From positions 9,860,001-9,924,000 of the forward strand of contig CM075993.1 in assembly GCA_038087875.1 (NCBI GenBank): a stretch of 64,000 bases of DNA, written 5' to 3'. The notes beneath the pieces are model-generated. The model searched no databases. It saw nothing but the letters and a program-made list of their open reading frames with translations, and was not told the origin of the DNA. How positions within the stretch are numbered: the stretch's first letter is position 1; each line of letters opens with the position of its first letter. Source of the stretch: Malacoraja senta. Taxonomy: Eukaryota. Of the stretch, positions 1 to 43,289 are shown in pieces. The position numbers were made by a program, and so were the translations under genes.

Positions 1-3000
1 ATATCAGGATCCTAAATCCCTCCTGTACCCAAACATCAACGCTGTCCCAATGTTCAGGCCATTGACTCCACCATTGATGTTTGGCTTGAGGATGCAGAGA
101 TTGATACCTGGATTTTTGCGGGCTGTCGCGATGTTAGGATATTGATGGAGATTGTTAGATATTCCAAGTGGGATATTGGCAGTAATATTGGATGTTGAGG
201 GTTACCAGCATAATGGGATACCGGCAGTGATCCCAAATATTAGGATCCTCATAGGGAGTTACAGCGTGGACATAGGCCCTAAAGGCCATCGAATACACTG
301 ACTGTCAACCACCCACTTTACACTAATCCTATATTAATCCCATTGTTTTTTTAACCACGCATATTATCTTCAACTTCCCCAGAGTCTACCACTTACCTAC
401 ACGCTGGGTGTAATTTGCAGTGGACAATTAGCCTACTGACTCTGCAGGAGGATGGGGCCATTCCCGCCGAGTGTGATTGCAGGGAGATGGACGTGGACAA
501 CCCTTCCCCAACAACCTCTGACTGGGGACAATGCAGCAGCTGTCCTGGTTGTACAGCGAGGCTGTAGGATCGAGCATGTGTGGCAGCATTGTGGCACAGC
601 GGTAGAGCTGCTGCCTCCCAGCCCCAGAGAACCGGGTTCGATCCTGACTATGGGGGCTATCAATATGGAGTTTGCACGTTCTCCCAGTGACCGCGTGGGT
701 TTTCCCCGGGTGCTCCGGTTTAGAGAGTCAAAGAGCGAGAGAGTAATACAGTGTGGAAACAGGCCCTTCGGCCCAACGTGCCCACACCGCCCAGCTACAC
801 TAGGCCCAGCTGTCCGCGTTTGGCCCATATCCCTCCAAACCTATCCAGTGTCCTTTCCTTCCACATTCCAAATACACGCAGGTTTTTCAGTTAATTGGCC
901 TCTGTAAAATGGCCCTAATGTCTAGGATAGAACTAGTGTATGGGTGATTGTTGGTCGGTGCGGACTTGGTGGGCCAAAGATCAGTTTCCATCCTGTTCCT
1001 CTGAAATAAATTATTTTAATTTCAACAGATTTTTAGTTCCAGTTTTGTCTGGGACCAAGTGCAGTGGGATTGCCTCGTCCTGGGAGATTGGCCATGGTGA
1101 CCACTGATTCTGCCCAGGCAGGTAAGTGAGTATCACTCAGTGGGATGTGGGAACAGAGAGGCCAACACAATTGAATGCAGGACTAAAGAGGGGAGGGAGG
1201 TAACTCTGAGACGCAATCAGTTAGAGTTAGTGGATAAAACTATGGCCGGTGGAGGTTACTGGAGAATGTGGGGAGGGGGGAGAGGTCACTCTAGATCCAA
1301 GAGAGCAAAAAGGAACGATTGGTGAATGGAGAAAGACCAAGAGAGTGAGGCTGGGAGTTCTGGCTCCCTCTACACCAACCACTAAAAGCAAGTGCGGAAA
1401 CATCACCAGCCAAAGTGCCTAATGGAAGATTGGTTTTCATCTCATGGGGCTGGAGTGTAGAGGGCAGGAAGCCCTGGGCAATTACCAGAAGGTCTCTCTT
1501 CAGCTATTTGTGGATGAAAGACATCTTTACAGGAAGTGTCCTGGTCTCCAGTGAAAGGGTATTTAATCCAGGTTTAACTATAACATCTGTCTTCATAAAT
1601 TTCTTCACAGCTTTTTAATATATGAATTAAATGTACATAATCTGCTTGCATTTATTGGTTGGGGGTTTGAGTACAAGAGTCAGGAAGTCATGTTGCAGCT
1701 GTATAAAATTCTGGTCAGGCCACATTTGGAATGTTGTGTGCAGTTTTGGTCACCCCATTACAGGATACATGTGGTGGCTTTGGAGAGGGTGCAGAGGAGG
1801 TTTGCCAGGGTGCTGCCTGGATTAGAGGGTGATTAGTCCACAAGTCTGAGAGCAGTGGGGAAAAAGCTGTTCTTAAGTCTGGACATCTGGGCTTTCAGGC
1901 TCCTGTATCTTCTCCCAGAAGGGCGAAGAGAGAAAAGGGACTGGCCAGGGTGGCAGGCAACCATCACAATATGTCCAGCTTTCCTGATGCAACATACCAT
2001 GAAGATGGACTGGAAGGAAGTGACGAGCCTGTGATGGACTGGGCTGTGTTCACCACTCTCTGCAGGTTCAGGTGGTCAATAGCAGAGTAGTTGCCATACC
2101 ACATTGAGAAGCATCAGAATACTTTCAATAGCACATCTGTAGAAGTTCAGGAAAATCTCATATGTTCTTGGCCGCCTAAGAAGGTAAATATGCTGATCAC
2201 AGCGTCAGTGTGAAGGAACTCAGCAGGTGAGGCAGCATCTATGGAGCAAAGGAAATAGGCAACGTTTGAAACCCTTCTTCAGACCCGTTTCGGCCCAAAA
2301 CGTTGCCTATTTCCTTCGTTCCATAGATGCCGCCTCACCCACTGAGTTTCTCCAGCATTTTTGTCTACCTTCGATTTTCCAGCATCTGCAGTTCCTTCTT
2401 AAACATCAGTGTGAAGGAATCAGGCAAGGTTGCTGAATTTACCATGTGTCAGCTGAATGACCATGGTTTCCACTAGGAATGGGAAGTGATTTCAGGTCCT
2501 GGGCTCATGTTTAACCATTAAACACCCTCGCCAAACAATGTGAACATTTATTGCATCCCTGCCGTGGGAGTTTAAAACAAATACTCTGCGGGCAGGCTGC
2601 ATCTGTGGAAAGAGAAACAGGGTCAACGTTCCATGTCGGAGACCCCTCGTCAGAACCAAAGATTAACTCTGCTTCTCTTTCCACAGATGCTGACTGACCC
2701 TGCTGAGTGTTTTCAGCATTTTCCAGATTTCCATCATCAGCACTTATTTTGATTTGGCTGTGGTACTTCCCACACTGAGCCAACTCTGGTCTAAGCACAC
2801 TCATGCTGAGATGTGCAAGGACTATGAGTGGTATCATTCAAAGTACAAATCTTTCACCTCTACCCCATTGGACTTTGTGTATGGAACTGATATGCTGCGA
2901 TGCTGAGAATTTGTATTCTGCACTCTGTATCTTCCTCTTTGCTCTATCTTATCTGACCTTGACTTGATTGTGTTATGTATGGTATTATCTGATGTGCTTA

Positions 3001-3530
3001 GCAAGCATGCAAAGCACAGCTTATCAACTAAAGCCATGCTTTGCAATGAGCTGTGCAGAAAGGAACTGCAGATGCTGGTTTCTACCGAAGATGGACACAA
3101 AGTATTGGAATAACTCAACGGGTCAGGCAAGTAAAAATGACGGGGGACGTTTTGGGTCGGGACCCTTCTTCAGACTCCGAGATGCTGCCTGACCCGCAGA
3201 GTTACTCCAGCACTTTGCAACGTGCTGGTCTGTGAGGGCAGGTGAGATCATATCCATGCCTCCTGACGCACGGTGACCCAGTTTCCTCCCAGACTCTGGA
3301 CGGGCGGGTAGATGACGAGAATGGTTCTGACGTCTCGCCAGGAAAGTTAATGAGGGAGTTCAAAAGGCTTCAAAAGAAGCCAATTAAATTAAGAGGACTG
3401 TGCTCGTCCAGAATGATGGGACCATGTCGGGCTTCCTTTTCACACACTTTGGCTCCTTCATAATTTGTGTGCCTGCTACATGTTGGGACAATTCACTCAA
3501 TAACTCCAACGAGTGGTGACTCAAGCATAA

Positions 3531-3547
3531 AGTTCACCCCAGGGTCA
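3531..3547 (+). promoter_or_regulatory. Candidate DR5 retinoic acid response element AGTTCA-cccca-GGGTCA
   Basis: Two perfect RGKTCA half-sites 5 nt apart; AP-1 TGACTCA at 3517-3523; lies in a unique-looking island. Confidence 0.5.
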
Positions 3548-4106
3548 TAGCAGGTGCTGACCATGGCTTAAATGGCAATTTGTAATTAAGTTTGTATGAA
3601 TGGTTTGTTCATAGAATATTAGTCCTTTTATTCGGCAGCCCAGAACGGGGACTGAGCCTCATTCATGGGGTTGCCTGACAAACTGTTTGATTGAACAATA
3701 GTGCAACCACCAACTGGACTTTTCCAAGCTGAGATTCTGCAACATTCCACTGGTCCACGGGCTTTCGCTCCAGTGAAACTGCACGATTACGTCAGAGGCT
3801 CCGTACATTGGGAACTGAGTCATCACTGCCTCCGGAGAAGCAGAGACTTCAAAGTGTTTCCTCTCTGCTGCCTCTTCTGCCACTGCCCTTCCTCACCCTT
3901 AATCAAAAGCGACAGAAGATTCAAAAGTTGTTTTTCATTCTGTTGCATGGTCATTACTGGAACTCTACAGAACCAACTCTTTTGCTCCTGAAACATGAGA
4001 ACATTGGGAACAGCATGAAGTTGATCAGGTTTTCCAACCTCCTCTGATTTTCATGAATATTAAGGCTGATTTGTGCCTCTTCTCTTTACCCCTAATTCAC
4101 CCAACT

Positions 4107-4126
4107 TGACCCTGTGTCCTTGACCT
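4107..4126 (-). promoter_or_regulatory. Candidate composite DR8 RARE AGGTCA-AGGACA-ca-GGGTCA
   Basis: Perfect outer half-sites 8 nt apart, with a degenerate internal half-site giving DR0 and DR2 spacings. Confidence 0.35.
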
Positions 4127-5669
4127 CTCTTTCAATAATAAGCCGAAACCAATACCTACATCTTTCCCATATCTCCGCCATCTCTGAAATAAATAGAGAA
4201 GATACGTGCAGGAAGAAACTGCAGATGCTGGCTTACACCGATGATGGGCACAAAATACTGGAGAAACAGGCAGCATCTCTGGAGAAGAGGAACAGGTGAC
4301 GTTTCGGACCGAGACACGCTCAGTCAGAAGAAGGGTCTCAACCCAAACCGTCACATATTCCTTTTCTCCAGAGAAGATACTTGGACATCTACATGGATAG
4401 TAAATGTCTAGATGGATATGGGCCAGGCATGGTCAAATGGTCCTAGTTTGGAGGGACATGGATGAGTTGGGCCAAAGGACCTGTTTCCCTGCTGTATGAC
4501 TCTATGTCTATGTCTAAGGTGCTGGAAATACTCAGCAGGTCAGGCAGCATCTGTGCAGAGAGAAACATCACCTATGGATTTGTTCCACAAGTGAGGCATT
4601 GAACCTTCTGAATTTTGTAGTCGGCAGGGCAGTACTCTGCATATCGCCAACTTGGACAATTTTACATTTTTATCAAGCCAATTAACCTACAAACCTGCAC
4701 GTCTTTGGAGTGTGGGAGGAAACCGAAGATCTCGGAGAAAACCCACGGGGAGAACGTACAAACTCCATACAGACAGCACCCGTAGTCGGGATCGAACCCG
4801 GGTCTCTGGCTGTAAGGCAGCAACTCTACCGCTGTGCCACCGTGACCGCAACCCATTGGGTTTCCTTGCCTAGGCCAAACTCTGCAACATTGAACAAAAC
4901 TAGAACGATCAACTGGGAAATGTATGAAGCGTCAGCCCGACAGAGGCCATTGAGTCACAGTAACCATGGATGAACGCTTCATGGGCAATGTGCTGACCTT
5001 AAACCCACTGTGTGAAGACATTCACGGATACTCACTCTCTTGCTGTGTACCGAGTGGGGTCTAAAGCAGAGGAAACGTGGGTGCAGTCAGGGGGACAATA
5101 GACTCTGTCATCTCCAGAGTGGAACCCACGGACAGTGAAAAGAACAACTAGCTCACAAGGTGCTATAGAAGTCAACGAGTAGTTTCATTATTGAATGCAC
5201 TGTCGTCTGACTGCCAGTGTCGTAAAGCACAACTAATTTAAATCCAAGATTTAATTATCCAAACGAGGAACTGCAGATGCTGGTTTACAACAACAAAAAA
5301 GACACAAAGTGCTGGGCTCATTCAGCGGGTCAGACGGCATTCCTGTAGAACATGGATAGGTGACATTTCATGTCATGTCTGAAGAAGGGTGCCGACCCGA
5401 AATGTCACAGATCTATTTTCTCCAGAGATTCTGCCTGAACTGCTGAGTTACTGCATCTTTTTTTAGTTTAAATCCAATTTATTATTGGAGTCATGGTATC
5501 ATAGAACTGTACAGCACAGAAACAGGCCCTTTGGCCTATCGTGCCCATATTGGGCCGGTCTCATTTACCTGCATGTGGCTCATTGTCGTCTCAACCCTTC
5601 CTATCTGTATATGTCCAAACATCTTTTGAAAGATGTAAATGTAGAAATTGTTGTGAATTTTATATATAT

Positions 5670-6770
5670 TGACACCGGGTGCAGTAGACGAGGATGGAGG
5701 AGGTGCACGTGAACCTCTGTCTCACCTGGAAGGACTGCTGGGGTTCCTGGATGGAGGTGAGGTTGCAGGGAAAGTACTTGGGGATGGGGTGGTTTGGGTG
5801 GGAAGGGAAGAGTGAACCAAGGAAGGCAGAAAGGGGTGGAGATGGGAGGATGTGACTAGTGGTGGGATCACGTTGGAGATGGCAGAAATGTCGGAGTATG
5901 ACGTGTTGGATGAGGAGGCTGGTGGGGTGAAAGGTGAGGACCAGGGGAACCCTATCCTTGTTCCATCCGGGAGGAGGGGGAGCAAGAGTAGAACTACAGG
6001 AGAGAAGAGTTGAGGGTGAGGGATCCATCTATGACATCTGTTTACTAAAGAAAGAGGATGTCACAGATGTCATTGAATGGAAAGTCTCATCTTGGGAGCA
6101 GATGCGGTGTATACGGAGTAATTGAGAGTAGGGGGTAGCATCTTTGTAAGATGCAGGACGGGTGGAAGTGTAGAAGGTCGGTAGGTTTGTAGTAAACGTC
6201 AGTCGATACTGTCCCCTGTGATGGAGACAGATCAAGAAACAGGAGAGAGGCGCTAGCTGAAGTCCAGGTGAATTCAATAGACAATAGACAATAGGTGCAG
6301 GAGTAGGCCATTTGGCCCTTCGAGCCAGCACCGCCATTCAATGTGATCATGGCTGATCATCCCCAATCAGTGCCCCGTTCCTGCCATCTCCCCATATCTC
6401 CTGACTCTGCTAATTCCAGAGGAGGGTGCAAGTTAGTGATAAAGTTAATAAAATCCACAAGTTTTGCATGGGTGCAGGAGGCAGCCCCGATGCAGTCATA
6501 GATGTAGTGGAGAAAGAGTTGGGGGATGGGGCCACTGCATGCCTGAAACAAAGATTGTTCAACGTAACCGACTGAAAGGCAGCATTGCTGGGGCCCACGT
6601 GAGTACCCATGGCTACACCTTTAACTTGGAGGAAGTGAGAGGTTAACAGAGGAGTTGTTAAGGGTTTGGATAAGTTCCTTTAGGCGGAGGAGAGATAGTA
6701 GAGGGAAATTGGTAGAGTCTTTGTTCAAGGAAGAAATGGAGGGCCTTGAGACTTTCCTGGTGGGTGGTGG
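5670..6770 (-). mobile_element. Degraded Penelope-like element (RT, linker, start of GIY-YIG), interrupted by a CR1 3' end at about 6275-6412
   Basis: Peptides MGT..GPS.A, LFLHYIYDCIG (YIDD-like), DVYYKPTD, PYSQLLRIHRICS, RVPLVLTFHP, FTCTSSILVYC.RC. Confidence 0.85.
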
Positions 6771-7067
6771 AGGTGGAGAGGGACCGGACATCCATGGTGT
6801 GTGGGGTGCATCGGACATATGGGAAGCGACGACAAGGGGGATAGAATGGAACCAAGGTATGTGGAGATGAGTTCAGTGGGGCAGGAGATGGTCTCGCGAG
6901 TCGGTGAGACCTCAGCGGCGGCGGTGGTCGATGGCGCGGGTGGACCGCCATGAGGGGGGGGGGGAGAGAACAAAGGAGGAGCCGGCGCAGGATACTCTGT
7001 CAGTGCCGTTTATGTGGTGACTATTTGTACACATTGGGTATGCAGCAAAGGATTCCACTGTGCCTGT

Positions 7068-8937
7068 GGGAACATAAAAACTGACTGCAAAAGTTTTTAT
7101 AGATATGTGAAGAGAAAGAGATTAGCTAAAACAAATGTAGGTCCCTTGCAGTCAGAAACAGGTAAATTAATCATGGGGAACAAGGACATGGCAGACCAAT
7201 TGAATAACTACTTTGGTTCTGTCTTCACTTAGGAAGACATAAATAATGCCGGAAATAGCAGGGGACCGCGGGTCAAATGAGATGGAGGAACTGAATGAAA
7301 TCCAGGTTAGCCGGGAAGTGGTGTAAGGTAAATCGAATGGATTAAAGGCCGATAAATCCCCAGGGCCAGATAGGCTGCATCCCAGAGTACTTAAGGAAGT
7401 AGCCCCAGAAATAGTGGATGCATTAGTGATAATTTTTCAAAACTCTTTAGATTCTGGAGTAGTTCCTGAGGATTGGAGGGCAGCTAATGTAACCCCACTT
7501 TTTAAAAAGGGAGGGAGAGAGAAAACTGAGAATTACAGACCAGTTAATCTAACATCGGTAGAGGGGAAACTGCTAGAGTCAGTTATTAAAGATGGGATAA
7601 CAGCACATTTGGAAAGTGGTGAAATCATTGGACAAAGTCAGCATGGATTTACGAAAGATAAATCATGTCTGACGAATCTTATAGAATTTTTCGAGGATGT
7701 AACTAGTAGAGTGGATAAGGGAGAACCAGTGGATGTTTTATATCTGGACTTTCAGAAGGCTTTCGACAAAGTCCCACATAAGAGAATAGTATACAAACTT
7801 AAAGCATACAGTATTGGGGGTTCAGTATTGATGTGGATAGAGAACTGGCTGGCAAACAGGAAGCAAAGAGTAGGAGTAAACGGGTCCTTTTCAGAATGGC
7901 AGGCAGTGACTAGTGGGGTACCGCAAGGCTCATTGCTGGGACCCCAGCTATTTACAATATATATTAATGATTTGGACGAGGGAATTGAATGCAACATCTC
8001 CAAGTTTGCGGATGACACAAAGCTGGGGGGCAGTGTTCGCTGTGAGGAGGATGCTAGGAGGCTGCAAGGTGACTTGGATAGGCTGGGTGAGTGGGCAAAT
8101 GCATGGCAGATGCAGTATAATGTGGATAAATGTGAGGTTATCCACTTTGGTGGAAAAACAGGAAAGTAGACTATTATCTAAATGGTGGCCGATTAGGAAA
8201 AGAGGAGATGCAACGAAGACCTGGGTGTCATGGTACACCAGTCATTGAAAGTAGGCATGCAGGTGCAGCAGGCAGTGAAGAAAGCAAATGGTATGTTAGC
8301 ATTCATAGCAAAAGGATTTGAGTATAGGAGCAGGGAGGTTCTACTGCAGTTGTACAGGGTCTTGGTGAGACCACACCTGGAGTATTGTGTACAGTTTTGG
8401 TCTCCAAATCTGAGGAAAGACATTCTTGCCATAGAGGGAGTACAGAGAAGGTTCACCAGACTGATTCCTGGGATGTTCAGGACTTTCATATGAAGAAAGA
8501 CTGGATAGACTCGGCTTGTACTCGCTAGAATTTAGAAGATTGAGGGGGGATCTTATAGAAACTTACAAAATTCTTAAGGGGTTGGACAGGCTAGATGTAA
8601 GAAGATTGTTCCCGATGTTGGGGAAGTCCAGGACAAGGGGTCACAGTTTAAGGATAAAGGGGGAAATCCTTTAGGACCGAGATGAGAAAAACAATTTTTC
8701 ACAGAGAGTGGTGAATCTCTGGAACTCTCTGCCACAGAAGGTAGTTGAGGCCAGTTCATTGGCTATATTTAAGAGGGAGTTAGATGTGGCCCTTGTGGCT
8801 AAAGGTATCAGGGGGTATGGAGAGAAGGCAGATACAGGATACTGAGTTGGATGATCAGCCATGATCATATTGAATGGCGGTGCAGGCTCGAAGGGCCGAA
8901 TGGCCTACTCCTGCACCTATTTTCTATGTTTCTATGT
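7068..8937 (+). mobile_element. 5'-truncated CR1 LINE (RT)
   Basis: ORF 7414..8169 with [22 protein letters not shown]1 3' UTR and TTCTATGT tail; short TGTGCCT TSD. Confidence 0.93.
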
Positions 8938-9556
8938 GCCTTGTCACATGTGACAAAGTATTCCATTCCATGCCTCCATCAATAGAATCTGTCCATGACA
9001 AGGCCACGTTAACCACCTCTGGCCAGTCCCACTCTTTCCAAATGATCACTAATCCTCTCCCTCTGGAATTGTGTCCAATATTTTTCCCACCACTGATTTT
9101 AGGCCCACTGGTCTGTAGTTTCTTCTTTCCTGCTGTCCTTCTTGAAAAGTGGAGACAATGTTTGCCAGCCTCCGTTCATCTGGCACCTCAATTGTCCAAC
9201 AACCCTTGTTACAACACAATGCTTTTCACTGGGCAGTTGTAGACTTTCCTGAAAGCTGCTGCTCCCAATGTTCCTTTGCCTGGTCTTCCCCAATGTTATT
9301 GAAATTTGCCTTTATTACTAGTCTATCCCTTTCCTTTCCATAAAACATGGCGACTCCTGGGTGAGGTCTCCTGTAAGATTTTACCGGGTTATATCCAAAA
9401 CAACACATTTCACTGTACCTCGGTACATGTGACAATAAAGTATCATTGAATATCATCGATCTGTAAAATACGTGAGCTCAGGTCACTATCTCCAACCCTC
9501 TATTTACAGTGCATTCAGAAAGTATTCAGACCCCTTCACTTTTTCCACATTTTGTT

Positions 9557-12406
9557 ACAATAGACAATAGACAATAGGCAATAGGTGCAGGAGTAGGCTA
9601 TTCGGCCCTTCGAGCCAGCACCGCCATTCAATGTGATCATGGCTGATCATCCCCAATCAGTACCCTATTCCTGCCTTCTCCCCATATCCCCTGACTCCGC
9701 TATCTTTAAGAGCCCTATCTAGCTCTCTCTTGAAAGTATCCAGAGAACTGGCCTCCACCGCCCTCTGAGGCAGAGAATTCCACAGACTCACAACTCTCTG
9801 TGAGAAAAAGTGTTTCCTCGTCTCTGTTCTAAATGGCTTACCCCTTATTCTTAAACTGTGGTTACTGGTTCTGGACTCCCCCAACATCGGGAACATGTTT
9901 CCTGCCTCTAGCGTGTCCAAACCCTTAACAATCTTATATGTTTCAATAAGATCTCCTCTCATCCTTCTAAACTCCAGAGTGTACAAGCCCAGCCGCTCCA
10001 TTCTCTCAGCATATGACAGTCCCGCCATCCTGGGAATTAACCTTGTAAACCTACACTGCACTCCCTCAATAGCAAGAATGTCCTTCCTCAAATTAGTGGA
10101 CCAAAACTGCGCACAATTCTCCAGGTGTGGTCTCACTAGGGCTCTGTACAACTGCAGAAGGACCTCTTTGCTCCTATACTCGACTCCTCTTGTTATAAAG
10201 GCCAACATGCCATTCGCTTTCTTCACTGCCTGCTGTACCTGCATGCTTACTTTCATAGACTGATGAACAAGGACCCCCAGATCCCGTTGTACTTCCCCTT
10301 TTCCCAACTTGACGCCATTTAGATGGTAATCTGACTTCCTGTTTTTGATACCAAAGTGGAAAACCTCACGTTTACCCACATTAAACTTCATCTGCCCACT
10401 CCCCCAACCTGTCCAAGTCATCCTGCATTCTCATAGCATCCTCCTCACAGTTCACACTGCCACCCAGCTTTGTGTCATCTGCAAATTTGCTCTTGTTACT
10501 TTGAATCCCTTCATCCAAATCATTGATGTATATTGTAAATAGCTGCGGACCCAGCACCGAGCCTTGCGGTACCCCACTAGTTACTGCCTGCCATTCTGAA
10601 AGGGACCCGTTAATCCCTACTCTTTGTTTCCTGTCTGCCAACCAATTTTCTATCCATGTCAGCACTCTACCCCCAATACCATGTGCCCTAATTTTGCCCA
10701 CTAATCTCCTATGTGAGACCTTATCAAATGCTTTCTGAAAGTCCAGGTACACTACATCCACTGACTCTCCCTTGTCCATTTTCCTAGTTACATCCTCAAA
10801 AAATTCCAGAAGATTAGTCAAGCATGATTTCCCCTTCGTAAATCCATGCTGACTCCGACCGATCCTGTTTGCTGCTATCCAAATGTGCGGCTATTTCATC
10901 TTTTATAATTGACTCCAGCATCTTCCCCACCACCAATGTCAGGCTAACTGGTCTATAATTCCCTGTTTTCTGTCTCCCGCCTTTCTTAAAAAGTGGGATA
11001 AGATTAGCTACCCTCCAATCCACACGAACTGATCCTGAGTTACCCAATCCTCTTGCTTCCCGCTCATCTTTGCTACGTTGTATTTCTTCTCTTTTATTTG
11101 TATACTGTCCCTGACGTCCCTTGTCAGCCACGGTCGCCCCTTACTCCCCTTGGAATCTTTCTTCCTCCTAGGAATGAACTGATCCTGCACCTTCTGTATT
11201 ATTCCTAGAAATACCTGCCATTGTTGTTCCATTGTCATCCCTGCTAGTGTATCTTTCCAGTCAACTTTGGCCAGCTCCTCCCTCATGGCCCCATTAGTCC
11301 CCTTTATTCAACTGTAACACTGACACCTCTGATCTACCCTTCTCCCTCGCCAATTGTAGATTAAACCTGACCATGTTATGGTCACTGCCTCCTAATGGCT
11401 CATTAACCTCAAGTTCCTTTATGAAATCTGGTTCATTACGTAACACTAAATCCAGATTTGCCTTCTCCCTGGTAGGCTCCAATACAAGCTGCTCTAAGAA
11501 TCCATCACGGAGGCACTCTACAAAGTCCCTTTCTTGGGGTCCAGTATCAACCTGATTTTCCCAGTCTACCTGCATGTTGAAATCTCCCATAATAACCACA
11601 GCATTACCTTTGCTACATGCCAATTTTAACTCCTGATTCAACTTGCACCCTATGTCCAGGCTACTGTTTGGGGGCCTGTAGATAAGTCCCACGAGGGTCT
11701 TTTTACCCTTACAATTCCTTAGTTCTACCCATACTGACTCCACATCTGTTTCAATGTCACCCCTTGCAAGGGACTGAATTTCATTTCTCACCAATAGAGC
11801 TACCCCGCCCCCTCTGCCCACCTGTCTGTCTTTTCGATAGGAGGTATATCCTTGAATATTCAGTTCCCAGCCCTGGCCCTCTTGCAGCCATGTCTCTGTA
11901 ATTCCCACAACATCATACTTGCCAATTTCTAACTGAGCCTCAAACTTGTCCACTTTATTTCTTATGCTTCGCGCATTCATATACAGCACTTTGACCTCCG
12001 TATTCACGTCCCCCCTCGCACCGCTCGCAATTGGCCCTGACCTTACTCTTTTATCCATTCTCGAACTTTCCTTCCCATTAATTCGAGAATCTTTTGTAAT
12101 TGTTCCTGTACTCACTTCCCCTTCAACTCCATCTTTATACTCCCAATTTGTCAATCCCTCCCCCCCACTATTTAGTTTAAACCCACACGTGTAGCCCTAG
12201 CAAACCTGCCTGCCAGAATGTCGGTCCCCCTCCAGTTAACGTGTAACCCGTCCCTTTTGTACAGGTCACCACTACCCCAGAGGAGATCCCAGTGATCTAT
12301 AAATCTAAATCCTTGCTCCCTGCACCAGCCCTCAGCCACACATTCAGATCCCCTATCTCCCTGTTCCTGTCCTCACTAGCACGAGGTACTGGCAGCAATC
12401 CAGAGA
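9557..12406 (-). mobile_element. CR1 LINE (EN+RT, internally deleted, frameshifted) inserted in the left TIR of the Tc1
   Basis: ORFs with [50 protein letters not shown]; (CTATTGT)n tail. Confidence 0.93.
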
Positions 12407-13100
12407 CACATTACAGCCTTATTTTAAAATGGATTAAATTCTTTTTTTTTAAATCATCAATCTACACACAATACCCCAGAACGAAGAAGCAAAACAGGTG
12501 TTTAGAAATTTTTGCAAAGTAATTAAAAAGAAATATCACATTTACATAAGTATTCAGACCCTTTGCTGTGACACTCAAAATTGAGCTTAGGTTCATCCTG
12601 TTTCCATTGATTATCCTTGAGATGTTTCTACAACATGATTGGAGTCCACCAGTGGTAAATTAAATTGATTGGACATGATTTGGAAAGGCACACACCTGTC
12701 TATATAAGGTCCCACAGTTGACAGTGCATGTCAGAGCAAAAACCAACCCATGAAGATGAAGGAATTGTCCGTAGACCTCCGAGACAGGATTGTGTCGAGA
12801 CACAGATCTGGGGAAGGGTATAAAACAATTTCTGCAGCATTGCAGGTCCCGAAGAGCACAGTGGCCTCTGTCATTCTTAAATGGAAGAACTTTGGAACCA
12901 CCAGGTAATAGCCGCACATTTTCATAGAGCTTGTCGCCCGGCCAAACTGAGCAATCGGGGGAGAAAGGCCTTGGTCAGGGAGGTGACCAAGAACCTGATG
13001 GTCACTGACAGAGCTCCAGTTCCTCTGTGGAGATAGGAGAACCTTCCAGAAGAACAACTATATCTGCAGCACTCCACCAATCAGGCCTTTATGGTAGAGT

Positions 13101-13860
13101 TAGAAACATAGAAACATAGAAAATAGGTGCAGGAGTAGGCCATTCAGCCCTTCGAGTCTGCACCGCCATTCAATATGATCATGGTTGATCATCCAACTCA
13201 GTATCCTGTACCTGCCTTCTCTCCATACCCCCTGATCCCTTTAGCCACAAGGGCCACATCTAACTCCCTCTTAAATATAGCCAATGAACTGGCCTCAACT
13301 ACCTTCTGTGGCAGAGAATTCCACAGATTCACCACTCTCTGTGTAAAAAATGATTTTCTCATCTCTGACCTAAAAGACTTCCTTATCCTTAAACTGTGAC
13401 CCCTTGTTCTGGACTTCCCCAACATCGGGAATAATCTTCCTGCATCTAGCCTGTCCAACCCCTTAAGAATTTTGTAAGTTTCTATAAGATCCCCCCTCAA
13501 TCTTCTAAATTCTAGCGAGTACAAGCCGAGTCTATCCAGTCTTTCTTCATATGAAAGTCCTGACATCCCAGGAATCAGTCTGGTGAACCTTCTCTGCACT
13601 CCCTCTATGGCAAGAATGTCTTTCCTCAGATTAGGAGACCAAAACTGTACGCAATACTCCAGGTGTGGTCTCACCAAGACCCTGTACAACTGCAGTGGAA
13701 CCTCCCTGCTCTTATACTCAAATCCTTTTGCTATGAATGCTAACATATCATTCCCTTTCTTCACTGCCTGCTGCACCTGCATGCCTACTTTCAATGACTG
13801 GTGTACCATGACACCCAGATCTCGTTGCATCTCCCCTTTTCCTAATCGTCCACCATTCAG
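13101..13860 (-). mobile_element. 5'-truncated CR1 inserted in the Tc1 transposase
   Basis: CR1 ORF2 C-terminus (ORF 13198..13914) and (TTCTATGT)n tail; the transposase resumes at about 13861. Confidence 0.92.
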
Positions 13861-16800
13861 ATGGAAGCCACACCTCAGTAAAAGGCACATGACAGCCCAC
13901 TTGGAGTTTGCCAAAAGGCATGAGAAACAAGATTTTCTGGTCTGATGAAACCAAGATTGAACTTTTTGGCCTGAGTGCCAAGCATCATGTCTGGAGGAAA
14001 CCAGGCACCGCTCATCACCTGGCCAATACCATACCTACAGTGAAGCATGGTGGTGGAAGGATCATGCTGTGAGGATGTTTTTCAGCGGCAGGAACTGGGA
14101 GACTAGTCAGGATCGAGGGAAAGATGAACGGAGCAAAGTACAAAGAGATCCTTGATGAAAACCTGCTCCAGAGCGTTCCGAACCTCAGACTGGGCAGAGG
14201 TTCACCTTCCAACAGGGCAACAACCCTAAGCACACAGCCAAGACAATGCAGGAGTAGCTTTGTGACATGTCTGTGAATGTCCTTGAGTGGCCCAGCCAGA
14301 GCCCGGACTTGAACCCGATCGAACATCTCTGGAGGGACCTGGAAATAGCTGTGCATCGACGCTCCCCATCCGACCTGACAGAGTGTGAGAGGATCTGCAG
14401 AGAAGAATGGGAGAAATGACCCAAATACAGGTGTGCCAAGCTTGTAGCGTCATACGCAAGAAGACTTGAGGCTGTAATCACTGCCAAAGGTGCCTCAACA
14501 AAGTACTGAGTAAAGGGTCTGAATACTTATGTAAATGTGATATTTCAGTTATTTCTTTTTAATTACTTTGCAAACATTTCTAAACACTTGTTTTTGCTTT
14601 TTTATTATGGGGTATTGTGTGTAGTTTGTTGATAAAAACAAATAATTTAATCCATTTTAGAATAAGGCTGTAACGTAACAAAATGTGGAGAAAGTGAAGG
14701 GGTCTGAATACTTTCTGAATGCACTGTAACTGGCTACATTCCCCAACATAATGGCCAGTCACATGGTTCCCTTGTTGGATTATCTACATAAGGTGTTAAA
14801 AATGTCTCCTGAATCTACCTCAAAAATCCCACCTCCTCTGAGCCTTTAACACTAAAGCAATCTCAATTAATGTGTGGGAAATTGAAATTGTGTAGTATAA
14901 TAACCTACTTTTATTTCATCTCTCTGATTTCTGCCTCCGTATATGACATTGCATCTCCTGTTGACTGTTCAGTGGTCTGCAATACACCTCCTAACAAGGT
15001 GACAGTATCATTTTTATTCCCAATCTCTGCCCAGTTGGCCTTAGTTCAGGTGTTTTCTCAGATATCCTCCCTCAAGACTGAGGTAATGCGATCCTTGGTT
15101 AACAGTGCAACATTTCTGCCCCTTTTTACTGCCTCCTCTATCTCCCCTGAACATTTTACCCCCTGGGATATTGGCATGCCAGTCCTGCCCATTCATCAAC
15201 CATGTCTCAGTCATGGTCACAATGTTGTAGACCCCTGTGTCAATGAAAGCTTCAGTTCATCTACTTAACTAGTGATGCTTTAGTTTAGTTTAGGTTTAGT
15301 TCAGTGTACTTTAGCGTAGTTTAGAGATACAGTACGGAAACAGACCCTTCGGTCCACCAAGTCCGCGTCGACCAGCGATCCCCGCACACTTAAACTATCC
15401 GACACACACTAGGGACAATTTATATTTTTACCAAAGCCAATTAACCAACAAACCTGCACGTCTTTGGAGCATGGGAGGAAACCGGAGCACCCAGAGAAAA
15501 CCCACGCAGGTCACAGGGAGAATGTGCAAACTTCATACAGACAAGCACCCGTAGTCAGGATTGAATCTGAATCTCTGGTGCTGTAAGGCAGCAACTCTAC
15601 CACTGTGCCACTGTACTGCTTGATGCTCCTTGCATTAAAGTAGATGCAATTTAGCTTTGAATTGCCTTCACCCACTTGAGTGGTGATTGGGAATACATCA
15701 AACAATTTTACTGTAATTTCCCACTGTAACTTTAACGTCATGAGAGGCAGCACAGTAGCGCAGCTGGCAGAGCTGCTGCCTCACAGCGCCAGAGACCTGG
15801 GTTTGATCCTGACCTTGGGTGCTGTCTGTGTGGAGTTTGCACGTTCAACCATGTGGCCTCATAGGTTTCCTCCGGCGCTCCAGTTTCCTTCCACATCCCT
15901 GTAAATTGCCCCAAGTGTATAGGGAGTGAATGGGAAAGTGGGACAACATAGAACTAGTGTGAATGGGTGATCGATGATCGGCGTGGACCCGGTGGGCTGA
16001 ATGGCCTGTTTCCATGCTGTATCAATATTTCAGCGGTAGAATTGTACCAGGGGCCCATGTGTCTGATGTACTCAAAGCATTATGTATCAATAAGGGAATA
16101 GTTCTGTCACACTAGGGCAATCAGGAGCCATCTATTATAGGAGAATAGTTACTGTATATGATGATAAATTAATAGTCCATTATGTAGGATAAGAAGACAA
16201 ATGTGACATCTTCAGTGAGTCGCCCTGGCTGGGGGAATGGTAGGAGAGGGGATTTGATCTTGAGATGCCACATCTGTTCAGGGCAAGTGGACCATGGTTA
16301 ATGAACGTTATTGATGGTGCTTTAACGCAGTGGGTTACAGAGCAGCAAAGACCAGCAGTGGTTAGTAGTGGCTTCCCCTGGCCAGGATCAGTCGGCCACC
16401 CTGCTTTGTACAGTCACAGTGTGACCCCCATTCTCCTCTGACCCCTGCTGTCCTCCTGCCTGCTGGGACCCCGTCACCGGGAGCCTCTGATCCCCCTGCC
16501 CCCACCGCTGGCTGGGCCGCCTTCCCTGAAGAGCTAGTGGAGACTGACGAAGGGACTCGACCTGACACGCCACCCAGAGATGCTACAGGTCCCGCTGAGT
16601 TACGCCAGCATTTTGTGTCTATCTTCAGTTTCAACCAGCATCTGTAGTTCCTTCCTGTCACATTTTCGAGACTCCAGCCCTGCCTTTTGTGTCTTTTCCC
16701 ACAAGACAGCAGATGTCAGGGCAGAGAGGGCTGGCGAGCAGAGGCACCCCCCCCCCCCCCCCCCCAACAACGCTCCCTCCGTGCCCCATTCCCGTGAAGA

Positions 16801-18249
16801 GCGACCGGAGGACGAGCCGATTGTTCTGGGTGACCATCCATCAACGGTGCCTGTCACGCACCTGCCACCAGCACAAAGGCCTAGCCTCCACGCTGACATG
16901 TCAACCAACAATAAAGGCCAGCCAGCCAGCCTTCAGTCCCATAGACACCACCCCCCCCCCTCCCCAATCACCTCCCCCCAAGGCAATTCCCCCAAGCATT
17001 GAGCCCACCGTCCCTCATTCACTGCCCCAACAAGACAGCGCGGGCCCCTGACCAAGGTGACCCTCATCACTCAACCAGCGGGGACATGCATCTCCATCTG
17101 ACTGTGATTAGCGGTCCGGAAAATAAATGCAGCCCCAGGGCCAGAACAGGACAGGCAGCTTGTTTATATATAGGAGCAGGCAATGTCACATTGCAATGTG
17201 CTCTCACCACAGACTGCAAGCAGGAAAGGCTCATCTATAAACATGTCACTTCCAAGTGCCGGCGTGACTGCTGTGGGTCATTTGTATCTCCTTTTTAAAA
17301 TATTGTACGTGTTGTATTGGTTCTTCATCAAGTTCTTTCTAATTAAGCAAACACACATAGATTTCCCTTTATTTCGTTTCCCTCACCCCTGACTCTCAGT
17401 CTTAAGAAGGGTCTCGACCCGAAACTATTTCTTTTCCCCAGAGATGCTGCCTGACCTGCTGAGTTACTCCAGCTTTTTGTGCCTATCTTCGGTTTAAACC
17501 AGCGTCTGCAGTTCCTTCCCACACATCAATTAACAAGAGAGATATAAAATGCTGGATTAACTCAGCGGGTCAGGCAGCATCTCTGGAAAAAAAGGAATAG
17601 GTGATATTTTGGGTTGAGACCCTTCTTCAGACTCTGGCTTACAAATTAACAAGGCAGCACCACAGTGCAGGGTGGCTGATGGCCTAGTGGGATAGTTGCA
17701 GCCTCACAGCACCAGAGACGTCACCTTGATCTTGACCTCTGGTGCTGTCCGTGTGGAGTTTGCACATTCTCCCTGTGACTGTGTGGGTTTCCTCTTACAC
17801 TCCAAAGACAGGCGGGTTGGTAGGTTGATTGGCCCTCTATAAATTGCCCTTAGTGTGTGGGAAATGGAATAACGTAGAACAAATGAAAATGGGTGATGGA
17901 TGGCTGGTGTGGACTCGTTGGGTCAAAGGGCCTCTTTTCCATGCTGTCTCTAAACTAAACTGAACTAAAACTGTCATTCTAGATAAGTAAACTCTCTGCA
18001 ATTAACTAAACATATTCCATTGACCATGCGGGGTCGTTAACTAAACCCAGTCTTCCTCCCCTCCAGGTCATCCACTATTTGGAGTTGCGAACCCATCACT
18101 CTCCTCTATCCTCTCTGTGTCTCCGTATCCCCCCCCCCAGTAGCACATTGGGGTCCCTGTATGAGTATCTGAAGGTTTTGGCTGCCCTTCAACAACCACG
18201 CTTCTTATATTAGGTCACCCAGTATGAAAGGGGGGGATGGGGTGGAGGG

Positions 18250-18480
18250 GTGCGGGTGGGTAGAGGTGGTTTGCTCCTGGGCCTGGCCATTGTGTCCAGG
18301 CAGCGGGCAGTCGAGGGTTCGACCCTAGTCGACTGCCTGCTTCCCTTCCGGGCCTACGTCCCTGGAGAGGGAGCACGCAGTGACCACGTGGTCGCTGGAG
18401 GCCTGAGTACTGGTCACAGTGGGGGGGGGGGGTCGAGTGTGTTGTGAATAAAGATGACAACATCGTAATTTGATGACTGT
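18250..18480 (+). mobile_element. Tx1/L1-clade LINE ORF2 C-terminal fragment
   Basis: LLLGLA...SRQRAVEG..DCL..FRAYV...LEREHA motif run, ending in a stop. Confidence 0.6.
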
Positions 18481-21390
18481 ATCACAATTGTTGGCGCAAA
18501 ATACAGCCAATGCCTTTAATGGTTGATAAAAGGAACAACTGGTGCCAACTTACAAAAAAAGGCACAAGTGCTGGAGTAACTCAGTGGGTCCGGTAACATC
18601 TCTGTAGAACGTGGATAGGTGACGTTTTGGGTCAGAACCCTTCTTCAGACTGCCCGACCCGCTGAGTCTTTTGTGTGCTTTGTGTTTTTTCTCTGTCGAG
18701 GCACCCTCTCTCATGCCTGCTGGTCTCCCTGGATACCGGGGCCAGAGACCACAGTGGGCTTCATGCCCAAACAATAGCCCAGACAGCGATATAATTTGCA
18801 ACGTACCCCTGTGACACCTCATGCCAAACCACATCACACTAAAAACATTTGCAGCTCCCCCTTCAAACATTCAGATAGACCCAGCCAGAGCAGGTCAATC
18901 TCCCCAAAGTCCCTCAATTAGCCACTTGCATCCTGCAACGGCCTATAACATAAGGTCATAAGTGATTGGAGCAGAATTTGGCCATTCAGCCCATCAAATC
19001 TACTCCACCATTCTATCATGGCAGATCTATCCGTCCCTCCTAACCCCACTCTCCTGCCTTCTCCCCCTGACACCCATAGACTAATCAAGAATCTATCTAT
19101 CTCTGCCTTAAAAATACCCATTGGCTTGGCCTCCGCAGCCTTCTGCAGCAATGAATTCCACAGATTCACCATAGATAACCACACATTATTCTCACTGAGC
19201 GGGACAGTCCATCAAAAGCGAAGCTCCCATTCAAATCCTCTCAGGCTCCACTAATCAGAACTGCCTTTTAGCTCCATTAGCTCCCAAACATGGTGAAGGA
19301 AGCAGTGACCAAGACACCGTGGACAATAATTCGATTATTCCCCCTGGGACCGATGCCCCTCCTCGCTCTAAGCCAGGCTCCTGCAACTCAGCAGCTCACA
19401 AAGATTTGCAGCAAGTCGGCATTGTGATTGTCTCCACTTTCCACGGATGCGCGGGCCCATTTAGAGAGAGAGAAACAGGGGCTTGCAGTAATTACACCGA
19501 CTCCCACCAGCCTGGACTGGAGGCCGCATCAAGTGTGAGGGAACAAGTGCCCTGAAACAAAGGGCTGTGTGTGGGGTCAGGAACTACGTCAGGGACAAAT
19601 CGTCCACCGACCCGAGTCGCCGATCAGTGCCCTTCTCAGAGAGAGGAACCACCGTCTTCTCCCTCTGTCTGAAGAAGGGTCTCGACCCTAAACATCACCC
19701 ATTCCTTCCATCCACAGATGCTGCCTGTCCCGCTGAGTTACTCCAGCATTTTATATCTATCCTCGGTGTAAACCAGCATCTGCAGTTCCTTCCTACGTAC
19801 TATGTTCTATATACCTATGTACATTGACTCTTAGATCCCTCTGCTCTACAACACTCCCCAGAGCCCTACCATTCACTGTGAAGATCTTGCCCCGGTTTGA
19901 CTTGCCAAAATGCAACACCTCGCACTTATCTGTATTATTTTTGTGTTAAATCTTATTGTGTATTGTGTGTTCTTTTTTAATTGCACCGGTGCTGGCAAAT
20001 TCAATTCACTGCACTTATATGTGTATGTGACGAATAAAATTGACTATTGACTAAACTCCATTAACCATTCCTCAGGCCACCTGCCCAGCTGATCAAGATC
20101 CTGCTGTAAATTTTGAAAACCATTTTCGCTCTCTACGATACCACCCGCTTTCGTGATCTCTGTATACTTGCTAATCATGCCTTGTACATTCTCATCCGAA
20201 ACATTGATGTAAACCATAAACAGCAATGGACCCAGCACTGCTCCCTGCAGCACACCACTGGCCACAGGCCCCCAGTCTGAAAAACAACCTTCCATCATTA
20301 CCCTCTGTTTCCTACCATGAAGCTAATTCTCTGTCGAGTTCTCCCTGGATACGATATGATACAAGACGATAGAACTTTATTTATCCCTGCAGGAAAATTG
20401 GTCAAATTGGTCAATTGGATCCCATGTGATCTAACCTTCCAGAGCAGAACTTTATTTTACTCCACTTAACAGTGGGCTCCCTTTCTCCCCTAATGTTTGT
20501 TGATTGAGGATGATCAAAAATTAATGTTTATTTCCTTACCACAAAAGGAGCCATCAAGTTCATATCGCTCTACACAGACTTCTAGTTTCAGGTTTATTTT
20601 TCATATGAAGAAGGCCATTCAGACTGTTAAAGCTGTGCTAGCTCCCAGAGCTCTCCCATCAGTCTTGTTATTGTCATAGAGAGTCATAGAGGGATACAGT
20701 GTGGAAACAGGCCCATCGGCCAAACTTGCGTTTGGTCCATATCCCTCCAAACCTGTCCTATCCATGTACCTGTCTAACTGTTTCTTAAACGTTGGGATAG
20801 TCCCAGCCTCAATTACCACCTCTGGCAGCTTGTTCCTACACCCACCACCCTTTGTGTGAAAAAGTTACCCCTCAGATTCTTATTAAACTTTTTTCCCTTG
20901 TTGCCCTTTGGCCTATTTTCTCTTCTACGACCATCAACTCTCTGCCCAATTCTTGGTCACCCTTGGCTGGAGGACACTTACAGGATTCAATTAAATGACC
21001 AGTTACATGTCTGGTTGTCCATGTTGACTGTATCTGGAATAATAACCATAAGACATAGGAGCAGAATTAGGCCATTCAGCCCTTCGAGTCTACTCCGTCA
21101 TTCAATCATGGCCAATTTATTTTTCCCTCTTAACCCCATTCTTCTACCTTCTCACCGTAACCTTTGACGCCCTTACTAATCAAGAACCTCTCAATGTACT
21201 TTTTAAAATATCCAGTGACGACCTCCACAGCCACCCGTGGCAATGAATTTCACAGATTCACCACCTTCTGGCTGAAGAAATTCTTCCTCATCTCCATTCT
21301 TTGTAAATTCCATTCAAAAGGTGCGTCCTTTTGTACTGAGGTTTTGCCCTCTGGTCCTAGACTATCCCACTACTAGAAACATCCTCTCCA

Positions 21391-23464: not shown

Positions 23465-23656
23465 ACACAACAATAGTCAATGAAATAATGATTTCCCAAC
23501 CCCAGGAGATCCTGTGACGGGGAGATCTTTTGACGTTAACAGAGTTGATCTTCTCTGCCCAGACAAGTGGTCTGCATGTACCATGAGACGACAAACTAGT
23601 CTTTCTTTTAAGAAAAGAGACAGCAAATACATTCGAAGATTCATTTTCTTCTTGAT

Positions 23657-23662
23657 TTTATT
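23657..23662 (-). terminator. Polyadenylation signal AATAAA of the CRABP 3' UTR
   Basis: TTTATT on + strand, about 385 nt past the stop codon, in non-repeat sequence. Confidence 0.65.
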
Positions 23663-24045
23663 ATCAGATTCACTCTGTTTCCACACAATTTCAGTCATCT
23701 TTTGGAAATGAGTAATCCAATATCTCTTCAAGAAGCTACAGAGACACAGGCAACAGCTTGAGCATGTGATACATTCGCTGGCATGGGCAGGTGCTTGGCA
23801 GATCTAAGTCAGAAATACTAAAGTCTAAAAGACCAAGTGAGAAGCCGTACACTAAATAATCTATCTGATTCACACATTCACTATTACAGACATGAAAGAG
23901 ATTTCACAACTTTAAAATCAAACACAGTTACACTAAATAAAAACTTGGAATGTCACAGTTTGGCATCAATAACTTGATACACCATGCACAAGGAGGTGCT
24001 TCTGCAGCGAGTGGGCTTTCCCCGCGTGAATGGATGAGGGTGTTG

Positions 24046-41603
<17,558 letters not shown>

Positions 41604-41808
41604 TTTGTGTGAGCGTTGGGGCTGAGGCTGGGCGCTGTGCTGCGTTTATTTGGACGGCGAGGCAGATGCCACACGCTGGCTGCTCGGAGACCACAGCCGG
41701 GATTCCCAGCTGCTCCCTCTCAAACTCTGCTGCTCATTACACGCGGGCTCTCAGCTCTCAATCACACGCCTCCGTCCCAGGGTCCAAACCCCCTCCACGG
41801 CCGCCTGG

Positions 41809-41816
41809 TATTTAAA
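41809..41816 (-). promoter_or_regulatory. TATA-like box (TTTAAATA) of the CRABP promoter
   Basis: AT-rich octamer embedded in CpG/GC-rich DNA about 205 nt upstream of the ATG. Confidence 0.6.
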
Positions 41817-42124
41817 GCGCCGCGTATTTCTCCGTCTCTTTATGTCTGGCCGGTGGGTGGGACCTGTGTCTCCGTCTCCGCTGTCAGACCAAGCTGAAGA
41901 AACTCAGCCGGGATTGGTCGTGGGGAGATAACTAAAGCAGTCTGAAGATGGGTCTCGGCCCGAAACGTCACCCATTCCTTCTCTCCACAGATGCTGCCTG
42001 TCCCGCTGAGTTACTCCAGCATTTTGCCAGCATTTGGTGTCTATTTGGGGTGGGGGTATCTTTCCACAATAGCACAGGCTGCTGAGGTGGTGAACTGATT
42101 GCTTCATCCCTTTAGAGTCATGAG

Positions 42125-42428
42125 AAGTCCAGAACCAGGGGCCCCAGTTTAAGAATAAGGAGTAAGCCATTTAGAACGGAGACGAGGAAACACCTTTTCT
42201 CACAGAGAGTGGTGAGTCTGTGGAATTCTCTGCCTCAGGTGGAGGCAGGTTCTCTGGATGCTTTCAAGAGAGAGCTAGATAGGGCTCTTAAAAATAGCAG
42301 AGTCAGGGGAGAAGGCAGGAACGGGGTACTGATTGAGGATGATCAGCCATGATCACATTGAATGGCGGTGCTGGCTCGAAGGGCCAAATGGCCTACTCCT
42401 GCACCTATTGTCTATTGTCTATTGTCTA
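42125..42428 (+). mobile_element. CR1 3' fragment about 0.3 kb upstream of the TATA-like box
   Basis: CR1 C-terminus, UTR and (CTATTGT)3 tail. Confidence 0.88.
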
Positions 42429-43289
42429 AGACAAAGACGTTGACCCAGGTTTATAACGCCTCCTGTCTTGTGTGGGTCTCAGCCCATTGTTAGTAAGCTC
42501 CCTAGCCTGAGGTGGGGAAAGCTACAAATCCCCTGCTCACCACTCCGGGATTCTCCTCTGTTGAAGTCAGATCTCCTCTGATCCTGCCCCATGCAAACCT
42601 CGGGTCTTTCCAAGCTTGGCCTTCGCTTGTGTTCCTCGGCTTGGGTTTACTGTACGTTGCTATAACTGGGGTTCAGCGCTGGGTTATTCTGCGCATCCGT
42701 CACTTCAGTTTGAATCTACTCTCACTCACTCATTGGGGACGAGCTTGGCGTTTCATGCCCGCTTTCGCACCCACCCCCTTACACTTTCGGGGTAATTTTA
42801 CAGAGGGCCAATTAACCTCCAAACTCACACGTCTTTGGGATGTGGGAGGAACCCGGAACACTTGGAGGAAACCCACGCAGTCACAGGGAGAACGTGCAAA
42901 CTCCACATAGACAGCACCCGCACCCGAGGTCAGGATCGAACCCGGGTCTCTGGCGTTTTACCAGCTGCGCCTCTACCAATACTGGTTTCAGCTCCAGCAG
43001 CCTTGGTTCAATCCTGATGTTTATGAAGGAACTGCAGATGCTGGTTTAAACGGAAGCTAGATGCAGATGGGTCTGAAGAAGGGTCTCGACCCGGAAAGTC
43101 AGTCATTCTTTCTCTCCAGGGACGCTGCCTGACCCGCTGAGTTACTCCAGCATCTTGTGTCTATCTTGGGCTCAATCCTGACTTCCAGTGTGGAGTTTGC
43201 ACCTTCTTATGCTCTTAAGCATGGCTTTGTTCCGGCTGCTGTGGCTTCCTGCCACATCCCAAAGACACGCTGATGGGATGAGACAATAC

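Follow-up and report, generated by a model that had tools for sequence, protein, structure and literature searches.

Penelope-like elements (PLEs) that carry an endonuclease (EN+ PLEs) are described as leaving complex insertions, with an inverted pseudo-long terminal repeat (pLTR), an optional tail of 30 to 40 nt and a target-site duplication (TSD) of 8 to 10 bp (PMC3846280; PMC8557442). Head-to-head inverted pLTRs with a one-sided tail were reported for rotifer, fly and other PLEs, the proposed cause being antisense self-priming (PMC3846280), and the formation of such inverted pLTRs and one-sided tails was named as an open question (Craig 2021, PMC8557442). For the PLE PAc, Poseidon of the anole Anolis carolinensis, both target strands were cleaved and extended in vitro, two internal start sites of reverse transcription (RT) bounded the tail, and the protein was predicted to form a dimer (Frangieh 2024, PMC11167929). 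The present analysis concerns short head-to-head pairs of PLE-type ends in a 64-kb window of Malacoraja senta DNA (assembly GCA_038087875.1, contig CM075993.1, positions 9,860,001 to 9,924,000), which is the whole stretch analyzed and to which all counts of pairs, arms and solo copies refer.

Most of what these pairs show is a known pattern of PLE insertion, reduced to a minimum. What they add is a one-tail rule, non-nested arms and a hotspot of 5' ends; twin priming with run-off is favored, and cleavage by the hammerhead ribozyme motif is rejected as the end-forming step. Positions within the element are numbered from +1, the A of TCAGTC on the hammerhead strand (28536 in the long copy). The CUGANGA core begins at +4 and is followed by a predicted cut between +31 and +32; 3' ends extend to +134 at most.

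Head-to-head pairs as single insertions

A profile search with the repeated element end gave 57 arm matches, amounting to 7.4% of the window. An earlier note on this DNA had listed five inverted units with flanking TSDs and six further palindromes. When the sequence was read out, all five TSDs were exact at the coordinates claimed, and the six palindromes (at 3055, 5265, 36200, 39521, 2590 and 29670) were all true inverted pairs. Five additional pairs (18531, 28260, 35180, 39333 and 57064) brought the total to 16, and in every pair the arms were head-to-head with the 3' ends facing out. The junctions had been placed at or near the hammerhead, and indeed all 16 pairs had at least one arm ending between -6 and +36, in or beside the motif. 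Inversion is also routine, as had been proposed, with 16 pairs against 19 solo copies examined.

A strict search for TSDs (repeat of at least 10 bp) was applied to 18 candidate pairs, the candidate at 62963 still being included. It found a repeat in 5 of the 18, exactly the five listed earlier, compared to 1 of 306 cross-paired flanks and 1 of 19 solo copies. The relaxed search (score of at least 11) covered 17 pairs, with 62963 removed and a weak candidate at 41893 retained, and gave 8 of 17 pairs versus 2 of 1260 cross-pairs; among the solo copies a score of 10 was reached in 2 of 19 and a score of 11 in none of 19. Three degraded TSDs (3039-3053/3213-3227, 5238-5256/5468-5486 and 39321-39332/39452-39463) were added in this way, while the pairs at 36200, 39521, 2590 and 29670 had no clear TSD (scores 6 to 8). 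TSD lengths were 10 to 16 bp, and the duplications at 2205 and 4195 include a few bases of element sequence. The candidate at 62963 was rejected as an inverted pair because its supposed second arm is a CR1-type 3' tail; 62963-63089 is a solo copy sitting in that tail, with a degraded TSD.

Partner arms also carried the same non-consensus base at 26 of 615 positions in the 13 pairs with at least 15 overlapping positions. This rate of 0.042 was above all 7324 permutations (mean 0.019), with the caveat that 7 of the 26 positions came from one pair and that conversion between arms could contribute. The partner arms were only about 82% alike, and their overlap was small or nil in several pairs (43018 and 39333). 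Since TSDs were well above the cross-pair null and partner arms share subfamily alleles, each head-to-head pair is a single insertion event; the earlier claim of one insertion per pair was thereby upheld.

The geometry of the arms was tabulated for the 16 pairs, the weak 41893 candidate being left out. Exactly one arm was tailed in 16 of 16 pairs, for which the probability is at most 0.5^16 if the arms chose independently. Across all arms the 3' ends fell into two main groups, at about +87 to +101 and +125 to +134. Most arms overlapped by 35 to 90 nt, and in 10 of 16 pairs they were non-nested, each arm having sequence missing from its partner (e.g., 32579, left +2 to +95 and right +19 to +134; 37761, left +1 to +93 and right +18 to +134). 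A fold-back copy cannot exceed its template at the 3' end, and the non-nested pairs therefore require two reads of the template. The arms of 39333 and 43018 meet at about +90 to +107, near the proximal of the two candidate RT start sites.

The 14 junctions that were printed all differed, 7 having no added bases (2 to 4 shared) and 7 having 2 to 14 added bases. Each insertion therefore created its own palindrome, and what replicates is not the palindrome itself. The earlier suggestion of a SINE-like (short interspersed element) class of fold-back units fails as stated, and a SINE with the palindrome as template was rejected, its internal structure not being shared in 14 of 14 junctions. A miniature inverted-repeat transposable element (MITE) was rejected on the asymmetric termini, with one tail, and on TSDs of 10 to 16 bp.

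The pairs, with arm limits in element numbering, are the following.

2205-2419: inverted pair, 14-bp TSD (2205-2218/2406-2419); left antisense +2 to +72; right sense +14 to +134 with tail
2583-2744: old inverted pair; left +3 to +73; right +40 to +122; no TSD seen
3039-3227: inverted pair, degraded 15-bp TSD; left +1 to +134 with tail; right +45 to +88
4195-4380: inverted pair, 11-bp TSD (4195-4205/4370-4380); left +14 to +133 with tail; right about -4 to +51
5238-5486: inverted pair, degraded TSD; left +19 to +125 with tail; right +2 to +87
18531-18690: inverted pair; left -1 to +126 with tail; right +56 to +91; no TSD seen
28260-28615: inverted pair with long arm; left +36 to +133 with tail; right about 170 nt of upstream body, then +1 to +80; no TSD seen
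29665-29875: old inverted pair, weak alignment; tail on right arm; no TSD seen
32565-32789: inverted pair, 14-bp TSD (32565-32578/32776-32789); left +2 to +95; right +19 to +134 with tail; junction microhomology 3 nt
35180-35332: inverted pair; left -2 to +37; right +19 to +126 with tail; no clear TSD
36199-36354: inverted pair; left about +27 to +62; right about +15 to +127 with tail; no clear TSD
37748-37992: inverted pair, 13-bp TSD (37748-37760/37980-37992); left +1 to +93; right +18 to +134 with tail; 6 extra bases at junction
39321-39463: inverted pair with non-overlapping arms, degraded 12-bp TSD; left +2 to +94; right +107 to +133; host site is an older tail copy
39522-39689: inverted pair; left +44 to +97; right +19 to +134 with tail; no TSD seen
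43008-43181: inverted pair with arms barely overlapping, 10-bp TSD (43008-43017/43172-43181); left +91 to +134 (tail); right +2 to +101
57064-57566: inverted pair; left +1 to +132 with tail; right +1 to +91 after about 280 nt of broken reading frame (57191-57470)

A related unpaired feature was recorded on the minus strand.

17528-17653, minus strand: single arm +1 to +98 plus a 10-nt tail-like piece, 10-bp TSD (17528-17537/17644-17653)

This arm, at 17535, has the tail-like piece beyond +1 in the same orientation as the arm itself. It is the second of two arms lying tail-to-tail at 17374-17653, separated by 9 bp, and the TSD is its own. It was also observed that the strand at +50 to +58 can pair with +79 to +87 or with +109 to +118 (e.g., 19714-19785). 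The two groups of 3' ends lie about 10 to 15 nt behind each pairing partner, and the tail may thus repeat a recognition stem.

The position at which the arms begin

The motif downstream of the arm starts consists of CUGANGA, an extra A, a 4-bp helix II, GAAA and a palindromic helix III, with a helix I of 2 bp in the genome. Minimal PLE hammerheads are marked by an extra base after A9, G10.1-C11.1 and a palindromic helix III (Cervera and de la Pena, PMC4209133), and the minimal type I feature set of that paper was present in the pLTR of the element, in agreement with the Penelope-type assignment made earlier. Helix pairing was observed in 83% of cells in 24 copies, above slid controls. Covariation in the hammerhead helices among 24 copies did not exceed that of shuffles, and Rfam gave no match over the units at the gathering score. 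The two landmarks in the long copy are as follows.

28534-28540, plus strand: TCAGTCT word at the 5'-end hotspot, +1 being the A at 28536
28539-28568, plus strand: minimal type I hammerhead motif, predicted cut between 28566 and 28567

For the statistics of 5' ends, 8 matches with an alignment score below 45 and 1 duplicate were removed from the 57, leaving 48 arms. The 5' end fell at -4 to +4 in 22 of these versus 3.6 expected under a uniform null, a count not reached in any of 200000 simulations. At +28 to +35, the region of the predicted cut, there were 2 versus 3.25 expected, and the 7 ends at +12 to +20 (3.9 expected, P 0.09) were suggestive only. Hand checking showed that two arms of the -4 to +4 class (34866 and 30668) continue into other upstream bodies and that one of the +28 to +35 class (46547) is an internal deletion in a copy starting at +2, leaving about 21 and 1 arms, respectively. 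The peak of 5' ends is at +1 and not at the predicted cleavage site. The proposal that ribozyme cleavage sets the template end was not borne out, as 5' ends are not enriched at the cut and most arms keep the whole core. On this evidence the motif is retained without being cut, and formation of the ends by cleavage finds no support.

Solo copies also begin within the -4 to +4 peak, and their upstream flanks have no sequence in common. The peak is therefore explained neither by annealing to a partner arm nor by a common first exon. Further data were obtained from run X1, from another organism (90450 contig records), which was aligned to 28362-28625; contig depth in this run does not equal copy number. 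Depth rose 5-fold at 28533-28541 and 1.4-fold across the predicted cut, and a second run, X15, flagged as probably DNA, was alike. Among the loose ends listed, 440 lay before 28534 and 378 before 28536, and among the opposite-strand joints listed, 37 of 38 contigs had one side at 28534-28537. The partner side of these joints (28568-28579) was not used, because the reference extends only to +80, a divergent subfamily aligns from 28578 onward, and the joints listed are the best rows.

TCAGTCT fits the initiator consensus and, after a pyrimidine tract, also that of a 3' splice site. The X1 alignment showed that TCAG is kept across subfamilies with different bodies, and RNA starting at +1 in the 5' pLTR would hold the RT start sites 95 to 135 nt from its 5' end. 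Because of the initiator-like word, the retention of TCAG and the span of this RNA, +1 was read as a transcription start, and the 5' end of the RNA is probably located there. A Drosophila-type downstream promoter element was sought and did not fit at canonical spacing. With regard to the idea of a copied cap, a G precedes +1 in several copies, and the loose-end consensus before 28536 ends in A.

Two observations concern the longer and the downstream sequences. On the minus strand at 34747-34985 an arm with +1 to +3 deleted follows an upstream body of another kind, about 120 nt long, which brings the long subfamilies to at least two. In X1 and X15 there are joints that go back from +80 to about +43 and have 20 to 30 intervening letters, a pattern suggesting that the downstream stem region is repeated there in short head-to-tail form.

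Priming of the pairs and competing explanations

It is likely that the pairs arose from two priming events. More specifically, we lean towards the pairs being products, devoid of an open reading frame (ORF), of insertion by an EN+ PLE through twin priming, with the autonomous transcript as template. The PLE endonuclease would nick both target strands 10 to 16 bp apart, as judged from the TSDs. One nicked 3' end would start RT at the distal internal site (about +134), tail included. The second would use the proximal site (about +90 to +101), which yields no tail, or nearby microhomology; the primed template could be one RNA or two RNAs held by the dimer. One cDNA, a run-off resembling a strong stop, would usually run to the end of the RNA at +1, the hammerhead core beginning 3 nt downstream. 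The cDNA 3' ends would then anneal over 2 to 4 nt of microhomology, often in helix II, or be joined through a few filler bases. The product would be a head-to-head pair enclosed by a TSD, with a hammerhead that is uncut and does not set the end. Helix II is self-complementary, and the junctions cluster there.

Several points weigh against this account. No visible TSD was found in 9 of the 17 pairs of the relaxed search, and in 6 of 16 pairs the arms were nested, an arrangement also obtainable by a fold-back copy. Among the 31 frames of at least 150 amino acids in the window, inspected by eye, there was no single ORF joining a PLE-type reverse transcriptase to a GIY-YIG endonuclease. The depth step in X1 came in part from other subfamilies with different upstream bodies (the 28534 class), and the word TCAGTCT, lying behind a pyrimidine tract, suits a 3' splice site as well. 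In the D. virilis element the start lies about 120 nt upstream of the intron end, which maps to helix I at its 5' end (PMC4209133, PMC2377424), and the start site of PAc was not seen to differ between the two strands, so that the one-tail rule is not predicted (PMC11167929).

The plus-strand segment 57191-57476 contains a broken reading frame joined straight to +1 of an arm. We take this frame (57191-57470) to resemble the N terminus of a PLE protein; Pfam and a word search gave no support, and phmmer gave one weak hit, in the out-of-frame middle, with no RT domain. The joint may have arisen when RT, on reaching the RNA 5' end, switched template to the parent ORF. A local inverted duplication of about 250 bp (57417-57667 and 58646-58898; 91%) takes in about 100 bp of flank together with one arm and some of the upstream frame.

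A narrower version of twin priming is put forward tentatively, and we would not expect it to hold in full. Here the PLE dimer would engage the two start sites of a single capped RNA simultaneously, each for one nicked strand, with the proximal cDNA running off at the transcription start, shortly before the uncut hammerhead, and the distal cDNA following by strand displacement. If this were true, a single step would account for the inverted pLTR and one-sided tail of EN+ PLEs generally, thousands of short copies would be a genomic record of the RNA 5' end, and some of them might be self-transcribing parasites needing no defined 3' end.

The foremost competing explanation departs from twin priming on the autonomous transcript only in the source of the RNA. 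Solo copies of +1 to +134 with an internal promoter would be transcribed and then copied in trans, as a SINE-like parasite of a PLE. Long copies are much rarer than short ones, very few of the 48 arms extend upstream of +1, and the four copies of one subfamily (2211, 39333, 63289 and 63874) are all short. Furthermore, the D. virilis Penelope promoter is internal (PMC2377424), and non-autonomous elements derived from pLTRs have been published (PMC8557442; bioRxiv 10.64898/2026.07.22.740005). On the other hand, the core and tail are common to short and long copies, with no subfamily shown to be without a long parent. The 134 nt contained no tRNA-like head or A and B boxes (by eye only, with no dedicated scan), and the window contained no tandem array of the unit. 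This explanation, with a short non-inverted template that may start at +1, was judged unlikely.

It is less probable again that the hotspot reflects splicing, with +1/+2 as the AG of a 3' splice site, or stalling of RT at a bound factor or small hairpin. Such an origin would suit the pyrimidine tract, branch-point-like word and CAG ahead of the core in long copies, the predicted 4-bp hairpin at -7 to +4, and the D. virilis intron end at helix I (PMC4209133). However, no common first-exon sequence was found upstream in the 25 core matches compared, the arms retain the G, and mostly AG, which splicing would take out, and stronger stems further 3' are passed by RT.

Fold-back self-priming, in which antisense RNA or cDNA would fold at the hammerhead palindrome and be copied into the second arm, is the published reading of head-to-head PLE junctions in its antisense RNA form (Arkhipova 2013, PMC3846280). 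The clustering of junctions at helix II and the nested pairs are in its favor, but in the 10 non-nested pairs the would-be copy reaches further 3' than its template, and this makes it very improbable.

The mechanism proposed in the earlier note, under which the template end is produced by hammerhead cleavage after +31 and is also where inversion occurs, fared still worse. It draws on the match of the motif to the minimal PLE hammerhead, one arm end at +29 and another at +36, and two X1 contigs joining -2 to +33. Against it, the end counts and the X1 contigs, which have no depth step at the cut, refute it for the main class of ends; a minor class may still arise in this way. In addition, helix I is 2 bp in the genome and a single minimal hammerhead motif did not cleave in vitro (PMC4209133), while PAc insertion had no need of hammerhead cleavage and no RNA-seq reads ended at the cut (Frangieh 2024, PMC11167929). 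Finally, two independent insertions at one preferred site might be imagined from the approximately 18% difference between arms and from nesting in older copies (39333; the tail-to-tail arms 17374/17535), but a single TSD around both arms, shared subfamily alleles and the one-tail rule make this scarcely credible.

Elsewhere in the window, reading frames showed many fragments of long interspersed elements (LINEs), which we take to be of CR1/L2 type. An exon of a gene of the lipocalin/cytosolic fatty-acid-binding family, presumably CRABP-like, lies on the minus strand at 38436-38614 (Pfam PF00061, E 2.5e-9) and is flanked by the pairs at 37748 and 39321-39689. A 76-bp near-perfect palindrome (35725-35800, 95%, 20-bp unit) is unrelated to the arms, and a degenerate inverted repeat of about 420 bp (15472-15893, 69%) has no match to the arm profile. 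Exact-pattern scans of metagenome and viral contigs gave zero matches to the element.

Relation to known systems

PLE membership rests on non-coding marks. The units have the optional 30- to 40-nt tail at one end and an inverted 5'-truncated copy adjoining the 5' end, with the whole unit inside a TSD. One direct pair was found in the window (30522/30668), and joints that go back to +1 occur in X1 and X15; no ORF-bearing tandem was seen in the window. Neither an account of PLE insertion by twin priming nor a fixed PLE 5' end was found in the literature searched, subscription papers, Repbase and Dfam being outside the search, and the accessible parts of PMC8969392 and PMC5753468 contain nothing on such minimal units.

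Animal non-LTR (long terminal repeat) retrozymes are likewise short non-coding sequences related to PLE pLTRs and carry a type I hammerhead (bioRxiv 10.64898/2026.07.22.740005). As described in the same preprint, they form head-to-tail arrays with a hammerhead in each unit and are cut to unit-length RNAs, whereas the present copies occur in inverted pairs or singly, and the cut does not bound them. No head-to-tail array of the unit was present among the 13 Tandem Repeats Finder (TRF) rows for the window. A retrozyme was rejected on this ground and because 5' ends are not enriched at the cut.

In L1 twin priming, both target strands prime, an inverted segment is left inside one TSD, and the junction has microhomology; the second primer is not tied to any one annealing position, and the parts show no overlap. 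Unlike this arrangement, the arms described here mostly overlap, and it is the element that fixes the start sites. The likeness to PAc is closer, comprising two internal RT starts that bound the tail downstream of the hammerhead, nicking and extension of both strands, and cleavage that is not needed (PMC11167929). Inverted pairs, TSD geometry and a 5' hotspot are not described in the accessible part of the PAc paper (PMC11167929).

In practical terms, such pairs risk being mistaken for MITEs or conserved hairpins during annotation. They also offer a countable test of the origin of the inverted pLTR and one-sided tail, and this test favors two priming events over the published self-priming. With the EN+ PLE insertions, as far as these are described in the sources cited above, they have in common the head-to-head ends, the tail on one of them, the TSD around the whole insert, the microhomology at junctions and the pLTR hammerhead. 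They differ in that the insert consists of the two ends only, at 150 to 220 bp and with no ORF, and in that the copies are very dense and begin at a fixed position a few nucleotides upstream of the core.

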